This document shows positions 24,394-57,944 of a stretch of 64,000 nt of DNA, in pieces. This stretch comes from a virus. Its lineage: Duplodnaviria > Caudoviricetes. Positions within the stretch are counted from its first letter, which is position 1, and each line of letters begins with the position of its first letter. A program made the translations under genes and the position numbers. Location of the stretch: IMG/VR virus record IMGVR_UViG_3300021376_000006; one strand, given 5' to 3'. The notes beneath the pieces are model-generated. The model did not search any database, had not been told where the DNA came from, and worked only from the letters and a program-made list of their open reading frames with translations.

Positions 24394-24458
24394 GCATCCT
24401 TGTTCCTAAAATTATTAGGTAGGAATAGTTTACAAGACCTTCTGTTCATCAAGGATGC
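24394..24458 (-). ncRNA. Stem-clamped candidate cassette
   Basis: GCATCCTTG/CAAGGATGC 9-bp clamp with inner TTCCTA/TAGGAA hairpin. Confidence 0.35.
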
Positions 24459-24541
24459 ATGATAAAACACATTCTTGGGTGCCCGTAAAGACCATACCCA
24501 TGGCCTCGAGCGCCATTATGTGTTTGAATGTGCTTTATCAT
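24459..24541 (-). ncRNA. Stem-clamped candidate ncRNA cassette
   Basis: ATGATAAAGCACATTC/GAATGTGTTTTATCAT 16 bp with one G-U; clamp resembles 21588-21673. Confidence 0.55.
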
Positions 24542-24639
24542 TCCTATTTTACTCCTGCGTTTTCGCCGACAGTTTCATCCAGGGCTCCGCCCGTTTGGCA
24601 AGTTATAGTGTTGCCGCAGCCTCGTTCCGCATCACACTT

Positions 24640-24804
24640 TTAGCGTCGTTCAGTTAGACGTCGCATTCGTTCTGCATCTTCATTTTGTTGACGCAGCCTT
24701 TCAATTTTACCTTTAACTAATTGTTCAAGCAATCTATCGTTAAAAACAAAATTACGCTCTTCTAACTTTTTTTGAAACGACACGATTTCTTTTTTGTTCG
24801 TCAT
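24640..24804 (-). CDS. Basic coiled-coil peptide (54 aa, not in track), first ORF after the attenuator
   Basis: AAGGA RBS; MTNKKEIVSFQKKLEERNFVFNDRLLEQLVKGKIERLRQQNEDAERMRRLTERR. Confidence 0.6.
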   Translation of the reverse strand: MTNKKEIVSFQKKLEERNFVFNDRLLEQLVKGKIERLRQQNEDAERMRRLTERR

Positions 24805-24811
24805 CGGTTCC

Positions 24812-24852
24812 TTTATAAAACAAAACCCCAGGGTGTGTAGTCCTGGGGTTTT
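24812..24852 (-). terminator. Intrinsic terminator (attenuator 3:4 hairpin) upstream of the tRNA array
   Basis: AAAACCCCAGG-ACTACACAC-CCTGGGGTTTT-GTTTT. Confidence 0.85.
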
Positions 24853-24874
24853 ATAGAATTTGGTTAATTAAAAC

Positions 24875-24997
24875 TTAGGTTCTATAATCCCCCAGGACAC
24901 GATTACTAATATCGCGTGTAATCATACCCCAGTAGGCGGTTAGCCCACATTCGGGTTGTGATATAAACGATTTACATAATAGTGCTGAAATCATCAT
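24875..24997 (-). CDS. Putative 40-aa attenuation leader peptide
   Basis: MMISALLCKSFISQPECGLTAYWGMITRDISNRVLGDYRT; 3' end holds GTCCTGGGG, complementary to the terminator 5' arm. Confidence 0.65.
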   Translation of the reverse strand: MMISALLCKSFISQPECGLTAYWGMITRDISNRVLGDYRT

Positions 24998-25004
24998 AGT
25001 CTCT

Positions 25005-25033
25005 ATACTACATTTATTTATAATTGTTGTCAA
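25005..25033 (-). promoter_or_regulatory. Sigma70 promoter (with embedded TATAAATA) driving leader/tRNA array
   Basis: TTGACA-17bp-TAGTAT, 7 nt before the leader ATG; spacer contains TATAAATA. Confidence 0.75.
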
Positions 25034-25044
25034 CCTGTAAAATG

Positions 25045-25854
25045 TTAATTATTTGTTAATACTTGATTATTTATCAATTGATAATAATTGTCAAAGTCGC
25101 TATTGGGATAAAACAATGCATACAGTTTAAAAGTTTTCTTTAAAAAAATCAAATTAAATTGCTGATGCCAGCCATGATCATATATTAAATCCAAAAACCA
25201 TTTGCTTTTTTTACTAGTGCCGTTGTCCAGTGCGAAAAAATTTTTAACAAAGCCCAAACCAAAATATCTTAGTTCTGTCACTTGATTAATATAGTTATCT
25301 TGTTCTATTTTGATAGAACCGTGAAGTTTTTGATAAATTTTGAAAATATTGTTGTTATGATGCGATTCATCTACTAGTAAACGATGAAACATTTTTGCTG
25401 TTTGTTGATTTTGACAGGTTTTGTATAGCAAATAAAAACCAGTCCAAAGATAGCACTCACCTACGTAGTATCTGGTCAATAACTGTGTAAGATTACTGGT
25501 TTTAAATCTATCCTGCGCCTGCATTTCTGTGCTATTTAAATCATGCTGCGAAACATCTTTGTTAAAATTATTTTTAAAAAAATCTAATAGCATCTTGGCA
25601 TGCACTTCTTCATCATGTATCATTCTATCAAAATATTGACAAATCAAATTTTGGCTTTCGTACGTTAAATTGAGATCATGATAGTAATTTTGTTTAAAAT
25701 TGTTTCTAAGTGCAGGATATACTAGAGTAGTTTCATATTCCCCAAGATAGGTATTGTACAACCAATTACAAATAAATTCGTTTTCGAATTGATCATACTT
25801 TTGTCCGAGAGATTTGATCGCTCGATTAGAAAATATTGGAGTGTTAAATTGCAT
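25045..25854 (-). CDS. Ferritin-like di-iron protein
   Basis: Paired ExxH motifs (DEEVH, DESHH) with upstream E residues. Confidence 0.65.
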   Translation of the reverse strand: MQFNTPIFSNRAIKSLGQKYDQFENEFICNWLYNTYLGEYETTLVYPALRNNFKQNYYHDLNLTYESQNLICQYFDRMIHDEEVHAKMLLDFFKNNFNKDVSQHDLNSTEMQAQDRFKTSNLTQLLTRYYVGECYLWTGFYLLYKTCQNQQTAKMFHRLLVDESHHNNNIFKIYQKLHGSIKIEQDNYINQVTELRYFGLGFVKNFFALDNGTSKKSKWFLDLIYDHGWHQQFNLIFLKKTFKLYALFYPNSDFDNYYQLINNQVLTNN

Positions 25855-25886
25855 ACAAAGTATTTAACATTATTACTTTGATCATT

Positions 25887-25915
25887 AAAAAAGGGTCCTA
25901 AGCCCCTTTTTTTTT
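25887..25915 (-). terminator. Intrinsic terminator after pqqA
   Basis: AAAAAGGGGCTTAGGACCCTTTTTT. Confidence 0.7.
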
Positions 25916-25929
25916 ACTAAATCGTAAAA

Positions 25930-26004
25930 TTAACGATTTGCAATATACATAGTGATTTCAAAACCAAAACGCATATCTTGAGCTGCTGGTGTAGTCCATG
26001 CCAT
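25930..26004 (-). CDS. pqqA: Pyrroloquinoline quinone precursor peptide PqqA (24 aa, not in track)
   Basis: AAGGAG RBS; MAWTTPAAQDMRFGFEITMYIANR with ExxxY motif. Confidence 0.93.
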   Translation of the reverse strand: MAWTTPAAQDMRFGFEITMYIANR

Positions 26005-26123
26005 GTTATTTCTCCTTGATTAAAATTAACATACTGCAACAGTATGTATCAAGATTATAAGGCAATTTTTGGGTAAATTACATCCATACAGTCATGATTT
26101 TATGCTACGTAAATTTATTAGGT

Positions 26124-26384
26124 CTAGATAAAGTCCGGAGCAGGATAGTATCTCCGATTAGCCCATTGTTGTAATCTATGTTCATGCCAATAAATCATAA
26201 AATGATCTCTAGTTTCAAAATGTCTTTGGAATTCTTCAGTGACAGCCAAGCAACTGTTAAGATCTTGACCGCCCATTTCGCCTTTCATAAATGCAGTATC
26301 GCAATCCCAATAATACCGTTCTAGGTCTGCATAATTAAGATCCACTGCATTCAGTGCCACGGTTAATAAGAATATTTTGAGCAT
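26124..26384 (-). CDS. Secreted hypothetical protein, paralogue of 57684-57944
   Basis: Signal-like N-term; YYWDCDTAFMKGEMGGQDL. Confidence 0.7.
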   Translation of the reverse strand: MLKIFLLTVALNAVDLNYADLERYYWDCDTAFMKGEMGGQDLNSCLAVTEEFQRHFETRDHFMIYWHEHRLQQWANRRYYPAPDFI

Positions 26385-26405
26385 AGATGGCTCCTAAATT
26401 AATAT

Positions 26406-26588
26406 TTATAGGTCAACTTGCTTGCCCCAATTAATACGTAGCCATGCTCGTTCATGTACATAATGTAGTATGGTTAACACTATGTTTGCCATGATTGCTC
26501 CGGACCAACCAGCCCATATAGCAGTGACTAATGTTGCTATTATTCTCCATACCACTGCTCGTGCTATTGTTCTTTTATGCGTTTCCAA
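26406..26588 (-). CDS. DUF2061-like small membrane protein
   Basis: METHKRTIARAVVWRIIAT...YVHERAW. Confidence 0.75.
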   Translation of the reverse strand: METHKRTIARAVVWRIIATLVTAIWAGWSGAIMANIVLTILHYVHERAWLRINWGKQVDL

Positions 26589-26604
26589 TTATTTTTCAGT
26601 AAAA

Positions 26605-27012
26605 TTATCTAGTTTGATCTGCCAATATTTTGTAGCCCTTGTATGTGGGATGTACTCCGTCCCGACTAATATTATCTTCTGGTCTTGGAATTACAGTGTC
26701 TCCAAATTCCTCTGCTACCTGCCGTACTGCCTCCACCTGCCGAGGTTTCAGTTTGGCGCTTGGCAACAACCAAAATACTCTATCAGCTTGGGCATTAGTA
26801 CGCAATGATCTGACATGACCTTCGGTATTGATGCCACGATAATCGTTGGCACCTAGGCTGATGATCAAGTGTCGAGTTGGCTTTAGTTTGTGTAAATGCT
26901 TGGCTGTCCAATCATGTGAGTTAATACCGCTTTTGGCAATTGAGTGGCATTCGGGCCTTACTTGACTTACGCCCACTGCAATACTATCTCCTACAATTAA
27001 ACATTCAAGCAT
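26605..27012 (-). CDS. SGNH/GDSL hydrolase family protein
   Basis: GDSIAVG, ISLGAND, DGVHPT. Confidence 0.85.
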   Translation of the reverse strand: MLECLIVGDSIAVGVSQVRPECHSIAKSGINSHDWTAKHLHKLKPTRHLIISLGANDYRGINTEGHVRSLRTNAQADRVFWLLPSAKLKPRQVEAVRQVAEEFGDTVIPRPEDNISRDGVHPTYKGYKILADQTR

Positions 27013-27188
27013 TTACAATCTCCTTATAAAAATTTGTTGCATTATATTATATATCCTGACAATGTCTATTGTCAACGCAATTTTAATAGATTTTTACCAA
27101 ATATATTTTTATTACTCCAATAGAATAAATCTAAGTCTACATTGCTCAATAAATATTTGTGCTTAAGGCTTTCAATTATGGGTGGACA

Positions 27189-28862
27189 ATGAATCGATAC
27201 GACGAACTTGAAATACTAATTAAAAAATTTACACGACCAATACCAGACACCGAAGAATACAACTCAAGACTCGAAGAAGAATTAGAAATTATCGCAAAAC
27301 TAGGTTTTGCTAAACATTTTCTTCGTGTAAGAGAAATTTTAGATTTAACCCGAGACATACCACACATTACTAGAGGATCTGCAGGCTCAAGCCTGATATG
27401 CTATCTTATGGGTATCAGTGATGTGGATCCTATACTGGAACGTATACCACTGTCGCGCTTTATGAATCCCAGGCGCGATGACCTACCTGACATCGACCTA
27501 GACTTTCCGCACTGGCAGCAGGAAACTGTGATGAACAGAATATTCCGTAGATGGCCTGGGCAGAGTGCTAGAGTGTCAAACTATGTAATGTATAAAGAAA
27601 AGTCGGCTGTTCGTGAAGCTGCCAAACGCTACGGTGCCAAGGGCAGATTAAAACGCAATTTTAATTTGGCAGATGTGGTGCCAGCTGAATATGTGGGCGA
27701 AGCTGAACGCCTGGCAGACAAACTGTTGGGCAAAAAACGCTGTATCAGCAAACACTGCGGCGGCATATTGATATTTGATCGTAGTGTACCTAAAAGTCTA
27801 ATCAATGGCGAAAATCAAATATTACTAGACAAATATGAAATAGAAGATCTAGAACACTTTAAGATTGATATTCTAGCCAATCGCGGACTAAGCCAGCTAT
27901 GGGAAATAGATCAAAGAGATTTGTTAGATTATCCTGAAACAGATGCTGCCACCGCTGCATTACTAAGTAGAGGCGATGTGCTGGGTGTGACACAAGCCGA
28001 AAGTCCGGCCATGAAGCGACTGTTTAGAGCCATACGTCCACAAAGTCGTGCCGACTGTGTGCTGGGCACAGCACTGATTCGTCCAGTGGCCACACAAGGT
28101 CGTAGGCGTGCAAGTGCGTTTCAAGACTGGACCCGAGACAACTTGAGCGAGACTATCGTGTTTGAAGATGATGCTATAGAACTTATATCAGAAATACTAG
28201 GATGTGATCAGTATGAAGCAGACATGTGGCGTAGAGCATTTGCCAAGAAGAATGAAGAAAAGATGTTTGAGTTTATGCAACAAATTGGTGACCATCCTCG
28301 TCGAAATGACGTCCTGCTGGCCTTACGTGAACTGAGTCATTTTGGACTGTGTCGTGCTCATGCTATCAACTTGGGTAGATTGATCTGGGCACTAGCTTAT
28401 CAAAAAGCACACAATCCAGAACAGTTCTGGCAAGCGGCATTAAAACATTGCCAAGGCTCATACGCTAGATGGGTATACTGGCAAGAAGCCAAATTGGCCG
28501 GAGCCGTGCCTGCCGCGGGCGAAGGCGGTGAAGTGGCAGACTTGATACAGGATGGTCGTTGGCGTTCGGGTAGATTTATTCCTGTGTGCCAAGAAATTCG
28601 TAAGCCAGGACAAGTTGAATTCTGTGGCCTAGTTGCTAACTATCGTGTGTTTAAATCAGGACCAAAAGAATACATAACCTTTGCCACACTAGGCACTGGT
28701 AATGGTAGATATCTTGATGTTATATTGCCACATGCTACCAGTTTTCACGAGCAGCCCATACTATGGGGAACGGGCAAGTTGGGGTATAAAAATAATTCAG
28801 AATATGTTACAGTATATCGTAGCAAGAAAATGAAATTAACTGATATAGCACACATAACATGA
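27189..28862 (+). CDS. C-family DNA polymerase (DnaE alpha-subunit-like) lacking the PHP domain
   Basis: RGSAGSSL..Y..GI..VDP, RFMNPRR..LPDIDLDF, SKHCGG, FKIDIL, AESPAM, CRAHA; starts at the palm domain. Confidence 0.88.
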   Translation: MNRYDELEILIKKFTRPIPDTEEYNSRLEEELEIIAKLGFAKHFLRVREILDLTRDIPHITRGSAGSSLICYLMGISDVDPILERIPLSRFMNPRRDDLPDIDLDFPHWQQETVMNRIFRRWPGQSARVSNYVMYKEKSAVREAAKRYGAKGRLKRNFNLADVVPAEYVGEAERLADKLLGKKRCISKHCGGILIFDRSVPKSLINGENQILLDKYEIEDLEHFKIDILANRGLSQLWEIDQRDLLDYPETDAATAALLSRGDVLGVTQAESPAMKRLFRAIRPQSRADCVLGTALIRPVATQGRRRASAFQDWTRDNLSETIVFEDDAIELISEILGCDQYEADMWRRAFAKKNEEKMFEFMQQIGDHPRRNDVLLALRELSHFGLCRAHAINLGRLIWALAYQKAHNPEQFWQAALKHCQGSYARWVYWQEAKLAGAVPAAGEGGEVADLIQDGRWRSGRFIPVCQEIRKPGQVEFCGLVANYRVFKSGPKEYITFATLGTGNGRYLDVILPHATSFHEQPILWGTGKLGYKNNSEYVTVYRSKKMKLTDIAHIT

Positions 28863-29155
28863 AATCAAGAATACACCTTTATCCGCATACCGGTCCTGGC
28901 ACTAGAGGCTACATAGTTGCAGAACGAGCCGCACTTAAATCTCTAGCAAAACATCTTGAAGATGCCGCTCGAGGCATAGTGGGTTTCGATACCGTAAAAT
29001 GTTATGGTTCAGATGGCCACGAATATGAACTAGTAATAGTATGTGATGTAGCCGAAGATGAATGGCAGAACTTACCCGGACCCGGAGATCAAAAAGCAGA
29101 TCCCAGTAAGTTAGCAGTGGTTCAAACTTTTGACGAGCTTCGTAAATCTAATTAG
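28859..29155 (+). CDS. Hypothetical protein, translationally coupled to DnaE-like gene
   Basis: ATGA overlap. Confidence 0.65.
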   Translation: MKSRIHLYPHTGPGTRGYIVAERAALKSLAKHLEDAARGIVGFDTVKCYGSDGHEYELVIVCDVAEDEWQNLPGPGDQKADPSKLAVVQTFDELRKSN

Positions 29156-29602: not shown

Positions 29603-29678
29603 TTGTGCGCTAGACAGGAATTGAACCTGTTATTTTGAGCTTTAGAGACTCCGGCTCAACCATTTAGTTTCTAGCGGC
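29603..29678 (-). tRNA. Degenerate tRNA-like gene with amber anticodon CTA
   Basis: 76 nt; loop CTCTAAA; T-arm ACAGG-TTCAATT-CCTGT; bulged acceptor, weak D-stem, 3' end CAA not CCA. Confidence 0.6.
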
Positions 29679-57683: not shown

Positions 57684-57944
57684 TCAATATGTTTCAGCAT
57701 TCGGATTATACCCACGCATGTTCCATTGATACAGCTTTTGTTCGTGCCAATAAGTCTTAAAAGCTTCTTTTGTTTTAAACTTTTTCTGAAACTCCTCTGT
57801 CACAGATAAACAACTCCACAAGTCTTGACCACCCATTTCACCTTTCATGAACAAAGTGTCACAGTCCCAATAGTATTTTTCAAGTTGTTTATATGGCAAC
57901 TTAGCAGCATTCAAAGCAAGAGCAAGAGTTATTGATAGTAACAT
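57684..57944 (-). CDS. Secreted hypothetical protein, paralogue of 26124-26384
   Basis: YYWDCDTLFMKGEMGGQDL. Confidence 0.7.
   Translation of the reverse strand: MLLSITLALALNAAKLPYKQLEKYYWDCDTLFMKGEMGGQDLWSCLSVTEEFQKKFKTKEAFKTYWHEQKLYQWNMRGYNPNAETY

Follow-up and report, generated by a model that had tools for sequence, protein, structure and literature searches.

A stand-alone pqqA cassette in a lineage of huge freshwater phages, probably a precursor-only auxiliary metabolic gene

The window analysed here, a stretch of 64,000 nucleotides from the Caudoviricetes record IMGVR_UViG_3300021376_000006, carries a real, intact pqqA gene of a genuine phage. The gene (25930–26004, minus strand) consists of 24 codons followed by a TAA stop and encodes the peptide MAWTTPAAQDMRFGFEITMYIANR, which matches the full profile of each of the two curated PqqA models, namely Pfam PF08042 (38.8 bits against a cut-off of 21.1, profile positions 1–19 of 19) and the NCBIfam equivalog TIGR02107 (39.1 bits against a cut-off of 20, profile positions 1–21 of 21). 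At 24 aa, the peptide falls within the length of about 20–40 aa typical of PqqA, carries the Glu-X3-Tyr motif as E16-I-T-M-Y20, in which Glu16 and Tyr20 form the predicted cross-link pair, and retains W3, P6 and G14. The original prediction, made from the letters of the DNA, had read this small ORF as a phage-encoded PqqA with an AAGGAG ribosome-binding site, an upstream palindrome and a terminator of its own; the profile searches bear out the identity, and all four elements are present where they had been placed. As judged from its sequence, pqqA is probably a precursor-only auxiliary gene in a self-contained expression unit, which is the best of the readings weighed below.

Phage genes lie on either side of pqqA, in synteny with phage contigs from IMG/VR, and the window encodes tail-fibre, baseplate and collar proteins, a DnaE-like polymerase and an ATP-dependent ligase, with a G+C content of about 41% throughout. 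The nearest GenBank relative of the DnaE-like protein belongs to an uncultured 484-kb phage (37% identity), and the baseplate-like protein (798 aa) had no match in a tblastn search of the phage collection. The window further contains a permuted two-piece tmRNA of betaproteobacterial type and 27 tRNAs, of which 26 were found by ARAGORN and one (29606–29677, minus strand), missing from the ARAGORN output, by Rfam (38.2 bits). Two radical SAM proteins, a TauD-like protein and a PstS-like protein are also encoded, as is a redox block comprising a formate-dehydrogenase-like 2-hydroxyacid dehydrogenase, an FMN dehydrogenase, cytochrome c, Coq7, DoxX and PaaA; by its Pfam domains, the formate-dehydrogenase-like protein is an NAD-dependent 2-hydroxyacid dehydrogenase domain protein. 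The region recurs in the environment, with at least 22 lake-water metagenome runs containing more than half of the sampled words from 24400–28900. A contig of 1913 nt, corresponding to 24753–26665 with zero differences, is present in each of two independent lake metagenomes and spans pqqA with its flanks, and a 1897-nt contig from a third independent lake metagenome (25786–27682) links pqqA to the flanking phage genes. Because these independent contigs bridge both junctions, the pqqA locus is not a chimera with host DNA, a concern that had been raised together with the original prediction.

Just upstream of the cassette lies an ORF of 86 aa (26124–26384, minus strand) with a paralogue in the redox block (57684–57944, minus strand); the two are 67% identical across 64 aa, and no family model matches either of them. 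Also close to pqqA are genes for a DUF2061 membrane mini-protein (26406–26588, minus strand) and a GDSL/SGNH-like protein (26605–27012, minus strand), which recur beside pqqA in several otherwise different viral contigs (L060 and L076; L005, L086, L102 and L109).

The form of the peptide had been likened to PqqA of Burkholderiales, and the comparison with cellular homologues agrees. Among the matches listed, the nearest cellular PqqA sequences are those of a Rhodoferax MAG and a Burkholderiales MAG, with 22 of 25 positions shared (stop included), followed by Limnobacter and then by Caballeronia/Paraburkholderia. One matching Rhodoferax MAG encodes a PQQ alcohol dehydrogenase scoring above the cut-off and has ORFs of pqqBCDE size after its pqqA. 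The identical peptide core was absent from all 185,579 species genomes searched. On sequence grounds, the phage lineage has a PqqA type of its own, nearest to that of Burkholderiales and new here.

The gene is embedded in a compact cassette which, on the minus strand, reads TATAAT, 7 nt, a stem-loop, an A/T-rich spacer, AAGGAG, 7 nt and ATG. TATAAT (26054–26059, minus strand) is a predicted −10-like box located 7 nt upstream of the stem-loop, and the position of this box is constant in related cassettes, where it appears as TATAAT, TAAAAT or TACAAT. No good −35 element was found upstream of pqqA (TGTAAT occurs at 26077–26082), and TATAAT is missing from the list of the consensus promoter scan because of the poor −35. 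The stem-loop, CATACTG-TTG-CAGTATG (26030–26046, minus strand), folds as an 8-bp hairpin. Given that it follows the −10 box by 7 nt, it would sit at the extreme 5′ end of the mRNA, probably beginning within a few nucleotides of the transcript start. The original prediction had recorded this element as a palindrome; the palindrome stands, and the description can be refined to that of a 5′-terminal RNA stem-loop, given the compensatory changes in its stem, from CATACT/AGTATG to CATATG/CATATG in one related cassette (L003) and to CATACC/GGTATG in another (L037), and given its bacterial counterpart, namely the short hairpin that pqqA leaders of bacteria likewise bear before the Shine-Dalgarno sequence. 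Stems in more distant phage cassettes are unrelated in sequence and occupy the same location, and among the matches listed (116 viral and 122 bacterial pqqA), the leaders fold more stably than their shuffled versions, with a mean z of about −1.15. The palindrome does not occur a second time within the window. It is probably an RNA stem-loop, a likely role of which would be to stabilise a short, abundant mRNA. As a separate candidate for the identity of the leader, we considered the Rfam freshwater-2 motif (RF02980), the model consensus of which terminates in AAGGAG...AUG. The match of the leader (26002–26080, minus strand) is full-length and scores 20.9 bits against a threshold of 49.9, and no gathering-level match was obtained in 34 other pqqA loci, so that this sub-threshold assignment was rejected.

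The Shine-Dalgarno sequence AAGGAG (26012–26017, minus strand) is located 7 nt ahead of the ATG, and a motif of this kind precedes 115 of 120 viral and 119 of 125 bacterial pqqA genes among the matches listed. A terminator-like hairpin (25887–25915, minus strand), composed of an A-tract, GGG, an 8-nt loop, CCC and a T-run, starts 14 nt past the pqqA stop codon and is folded by ViennaRNA with a 9-bp stem. The consensus terminator scan did not report it because it has only three G-C pairs, making it the weakest element of the cassette. Related phages have a G+C hairpin and a T-run in this place after the stop as well, non-homologous to that of the window and stronger; as the hairpin of each relative differs, it appears that the terminator function was retained and the sequence was not. 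Overall, the features pointing to an independent transcription unit are the −10 box and the T-run hairpin, both conserved in position among relatives, with no −35 element and a weak terminator in the window itself.

PqqA is a ribosomally made substrate, in which PqqD and PqqE cross-link the Glu and Tyr residues, followed by trimming, hydroxylation by PqqB and oxidation by PqqC. None of these enzymes appears to be encoded near the phage gene. In tblastn searches, Limnobacter PqqB–E had zero matches in the window or in about 120–125 viral pqqA loci among the matches listed; as a positive control, the same queries matched 30–39 of 120 bacterial pqqA loci, and the earlier statement that the window lacks pqqBCDE is confirmed by a search that works. 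A PQQ dehydrogenase was also absent among the large ORFs of the window scanned with Pfam, and none turned up beside the other viral pqqA loci (about 120). The analysis also covered two related IMG/VR records of 192 kb and 100 kb, which share the identical first 41 nt of pqqA and represent relatives with different genomes: at the DNA level, the alignment is limited to the 135-bp cassette and some tRNAs, and several flanking proteins are 67–93% identical in a shuffled order. No PqqB, PqqC, PqqD, PqqE or PQQ alcohol dehydrogenase was found in either record; the highest-scoring radical SAM match had 25.6 bits, where the cut-off for PqqE is 381. An association of phage pqqA with pqqBCDE was thus seen neither in the window, nor in the two related records, nor in the other viral loci. 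This does not disqualify the gene, because most bacterial loci with the core motif are orphans too, with 81–90 of 120 among the matches listed lacking pqqB–E within 8 kb.

Virus-encoded PqqA has been reported as an auxiliary metabolic gene from methylotroph viruses of Lake Baikal (Coutinho et al., 2020, Microbiome 8:163; PMC7678222), and a 2026 study of a reservoir includes PqqA among virus-encoded genes (PMC13188868), so that the novelty initially attached to a viral pqqA was overstated. New in the window are the huge-phage lineage itself, the peptide type peculiar to it, a highly conserved cassette and a recurrent oxygenase neighbour. The closest precedent is the Baikal viral population VP_266, likewise an uncultured freshwater phage with pqqA, the gene being interpreted there as supporting PQQ-dependent methanol oxidation (PMC7678222). 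However, VP_266 encodes a methanol dehydrogenase and was assigned to Methylophilaceae hosts, whereas no PQQ dehydrogenase was found in the phage described here, which is also much larger (the related records are fragments of 100–192 kb) and has a PqqA nearer to those of Rhodoferax and Limnobacter than to those of Methylophilaceae; the two are set apart by description.

To assess how widespread such genes are, we surveyed contigs with a degenerate DNA pattern for MRFGFE[IV]TMY. The core motif is present in at least 120 IMG/VR contigs and in at least 120 bacterial contigs, the latter mostly from Methylophilaceae, other Burkholderiales and Methylophaga. The viral copies listed are mostly of the Methylophilaceae type and often the same as the host copies. 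A tblastn search of GenBank phages matched 12 records, 10 of them real phages: four Melnitz records, Venkman, MEP301, MEP401, MEP402, P19250A and ctXG6705, in all of which pqqA is intact and unannotated, as expected from the earlier suggestion that gene callers overlook genes this small. Some of these copies are overlaid by a spurious antisense ORF; for instance, a 'hypothetical protein' is annotated opposite the real pqqA at 76100–76195 in Melnitz and at 2067–2195 in ctXG6705. Other named Methylophilales phages are missing from the matches, so that no claim for pqqA is made here for the group as a whole. The two contigs of 'Acinetobacter phage MD-2021a', which derive from one assembly, were excluded, as CAKLQF020000010.1 is bacterial DNA, carrying a chromosomal ppk-pqqABCDE region filed as phage. 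Neither the Melnitz paper nor the MEP401/402 paper mentions the phage pqqA. Viral copies of pqqA are thus widespread and mostly unannotated. The Methylophilales/Methylophilaceae phages and the podovirus ctXG6705 resemble the window in having an intact pqqA of 23–24 codons with a Shine-Dalgarno sequence and no pqqB–E nearby, often on the strand opposite to the neighbouring genes as a unit of its own. By contrast, their peptides are of the Methylophilaceae type (...EMRFGFEVTMYVMNK), often the same as that of the host, whereas the window peptide ends in ...DMRFGFEITMYIANR.

A similar arrangement is known from bacteria. The orphan pqqA genes of Methylovorus MP688, Methylobacillus and Methylorubrum extorquens are likewise small monocistronic units located away from pqqBCDE, with a leader hairpin, a Shine-Dalgarno sequence and a terminator, and the extra copies increase precursor supply; these orphan copies are chromosomal and cellular, whereas the window copy is viral and its peptide is found in no cellular species genome searched. 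One PqqA peptide is consumed per PQQ, and orphan pqqA copies are strongly expressed in a PQQ over-producer (PMC9851590). For Methylovorus MP688, which has five pqqA copies, PqqA availability is given as rate-determining for PQQ (Ge et al., 2015, as cited in PMC11317620). The infecting phage would supply the consumable precursor peptide alone, translated from a self-contained unit with a −10 box, a 5′ stem-loop, a strong Shine-Dalgarno sequence, 24 codons and a T-run hairpin. The PqqD/PqqE, protease, PqqB and PqqC of the host would then turn phage PqqA into PQQ, and periplasmic PQQ-dependent alcohol/methanol dehydrogenases, and hence the energy supply, could be sustained as host transcription declines. 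The logic would be the same as for psbA of cyanophages, whereby the phage replaces only that component of the energy system of the host which is consumed or has the fastest turnover, although D1, the psbA product, is a subunit of a protein whose expression in infected cells has been measured, whereas PqqA is a substrate peptide.

The C1 and redox genes of the same phage, including the formate-dehydrogenase-like gene, cytochrome c and Coq7, count in favour of precursor supply. Several points count against it: PQQ and its holoenzymes are stable, and new PQQ may not be required in the course of a single infection; unlike in VP_266, no phage PQQ dehydrogenase that would create extra demand was found; and the terminator is weak and the promoter has a −10 box only. 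Homologues of the phage formate-dehydrogenase-like gene with 67–76% identity are present in three genomes, which does not single out a host, and the tmRNA gave no match above the cut-off in five genomes (two of Rhodoferax and one each of Methylopumilus, Limnobacter and Methylophilus). On balance, we consider precursor supply the probable function of the phage gene.

An alternative of a different kind is prompted by the gene downstream of pqqA, which encodes a ferritin-like di-iron oxygenase of 269 aa (25045–25854, minus strand; Pfam Rubrerythrin, 44 bits), although the reading of pqqA does not depend on this neighbour. The ligands of the oxygenase, E39, D81-E82-x-x-H85, E133 and D162-E163-x-x-H166, are invariant. 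An alignment-based AF2 model of the protein reached a pLDDT of 93 (a single-sequence AlphaFold model, with a pLDDT of 38, was unusable), and the nearest folds, all of them generic, are those of aldehyde-deformylating oxygenase, CmlI/AurF, R2lox and RNR R2, at a TM of about 0.5; a PDB sequence search with the di-iron protein returned nothing meaningful. The family is rare, with 14 clusters at 90% identity and 55 representatives (50% identity) among 1.84 billion clusters. The oxygenase gene has no Shine-Dalgarno sequence and is preceded, 6 nt before its ATG, by a TTAAATA box (25861–25867, minus strand) resembling the T4 late promoter TATAAATA, a likeness from which a promoter function may be proposed. 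The motif (T/A)TAAATA is located 3–7 nt before the oxygenase start in all seven loci compared (window, L005, L262, L264, L265, L267/268 and L269), and the combination of this box with the missing Shine-Dalgarno sequence suggests a late-promoter-driven, nearly leaderless oxygenase mRNA. As a separate observation, a peroxiredoxin (AhpC-TSA) gene is located near the GDSL-pqqA-di-iron block in L262, L264 and L266, together with a thioredoxin-reductase-like flavoprotein in L264 and a CMD/AhpD-like protein in L262 and L266; this small oxidative-stress gene set is absent from the corresponding place in the window.

The oxygenase gene lies 55–85 nt downstream of pqqA in six lineages (window, L005, L262, L264/265, L267/268 and L269), among which PqqA is the same or differs by two residues and the oxygenases are about 44–86% identical. 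Persistence of the adjacency despite such divergence of the oxygenase raises the possibility that the two genes form a functional pair, in which the oxygenase acts on PqqA or an intermediate derived from it, for example by using O2 to hydroxylate or oxidise the Tyr ring. A module of this kind in huge freshwater phages, combining a precursor with a tailoring oxidase, might accelerate or circumvent the slow PqqB/PqqC stages of PQQ synthesis, which depend on O2, or yield another Tyr-derived quinone, a proposal that we hold to be as doubtful as the pairing itself. The rarity of the family and the invariance of its di-iron ligands favour the pairing, as do the presence of both genes 3 kb apart on one contig in L266 and the fact that the fold neighbours include oxidisers of aromatic rings or tyrosines, such as CmlI/AurF and R2lox. 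However, the flanks are collinear (GDSL-like gene, small ORF, pqqA, di-iron gene, 54-aa ORF), and the adjacency may be inherited synteny. The same pqqA type also occurs without the di-iron gene in G001, G002 and L013/L052, about 110 viral pqqA loci of the Methylophilaceae type listed lack it, and pqqA is missing from the position just upstream of the gene in L270, a more distant member of the family. Furthermore, a terminator lies between the two genes, and the oxygenase has its own conserved TAAATA box. A functional pairing is thus unlikely.

It is very unlikely that the peptide serves as a decoy or modulator, occupying PqqD/PqqE of the host or a PqqA-sensing regulator and thereby altering PQQ synthesis. 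A peptide type not identical to any cellular PqqA in the species genomes searched would suit such a role, and a cassette designed for high output would serve a competitor as well as a substrate. Yet, the peptide keeps every position conserved in PqqA, the W, P and G residues, Glu16 and Tyr20 among them, and matches both HMMs in full, and it looks like a competent substrate. In addition, the peptides of many other phages are the same as that of the host type, which fits supply better than interference.

The pattern of substitutions bears on whether the peptide or the nucleic acid is the object of selection. Between the window and four close relatives, there are eight variable coding sites, seven of which are third-position, synonymous changes, the eighth being Ala7Ser, in the variable N-terminal part of the peptide; this bias indicates that the peptide is under purifying selection. 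The locus L005, an unbiased sample because it was found via the neighbouring gene, differs from the window pqqA by two synonymous and no non-synonymous changes, and its adjacent proteins are 70–85% identical to those of the window. The PqqA peptide is identical in phages in which the neighbouring protein is 45–54% identical. Synonymous bias, together with the same peptide across diverged lineages, shows that the gene is maintained in viruses.

Conservation extends beyond the amino acid sequence. The pqqA coding sequence differs among lineages by 2–4 synonymous nucleotides of 75, and the leader (−45 to −1) by 0–1 nt where the neighbouring protein is about 33–54% identical; in L266, the leader is equally conserved despite four peptide substitutions. 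The 135-bp cassette (25926–26060) has nearly invariant synonymous sites and a nearly invariant 45-nt leader in L262, L264, L266 and L268. Near-identity at silent and leader sites could mean that co-infecting phages swap the cassette or that the mRNA is itself under selection; one metagenome contig, which matches the cassette up to a point of divergence at 25945, fits the former. The same observations, with that contig presenting the cassette in another context, could be taken to mean that the cassette works primarily as RNA or DNA, for instance by serving as a regulatory RNA, as a sponge for a leader-binding host factor or as a recombination hotspot, the peptide being secondary. Substitutions are overwhelmingly synonymous, however, and every locus has kept its start codon and reading frame, and nearly every one its Shine-Dalgarno motif, pointing to selection on the peptide and rendering a primarily nucleic acid-level role highly improbable. 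That pqqA is a passenger, that is, recently captured host DNA without a role or an assembly artefact, as the tiny size and host origin of the gene and the bacterial pqqABCDE DNA filed under MD-2021a might lead one to suspect, is largely refuted by the independent contigs across both junctions, the recurrence of the cassette under purifying selection in many diverged phage lineages and the absence of an identical core from all cellular genomes searched.

PQQ-dependent dehydrogenases are the point at which bacteria that are abundant in fresh and marine waters take methanol and other alcohols into their metabolism. If precursor supply is indeed the function of the phage gene, providing PqqA alone would be a very cheap way of sustaining this entry point during infection. 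The wide occurrence of unannotated viral copies implies that current surveys of auxiliary metabolic genes undercount pqqA. The window contributes a clear case with well-defined boundaries, from a lineage of huge phages that is new, along with a testable lead in the form of the conserved neighbouring oxygenase.
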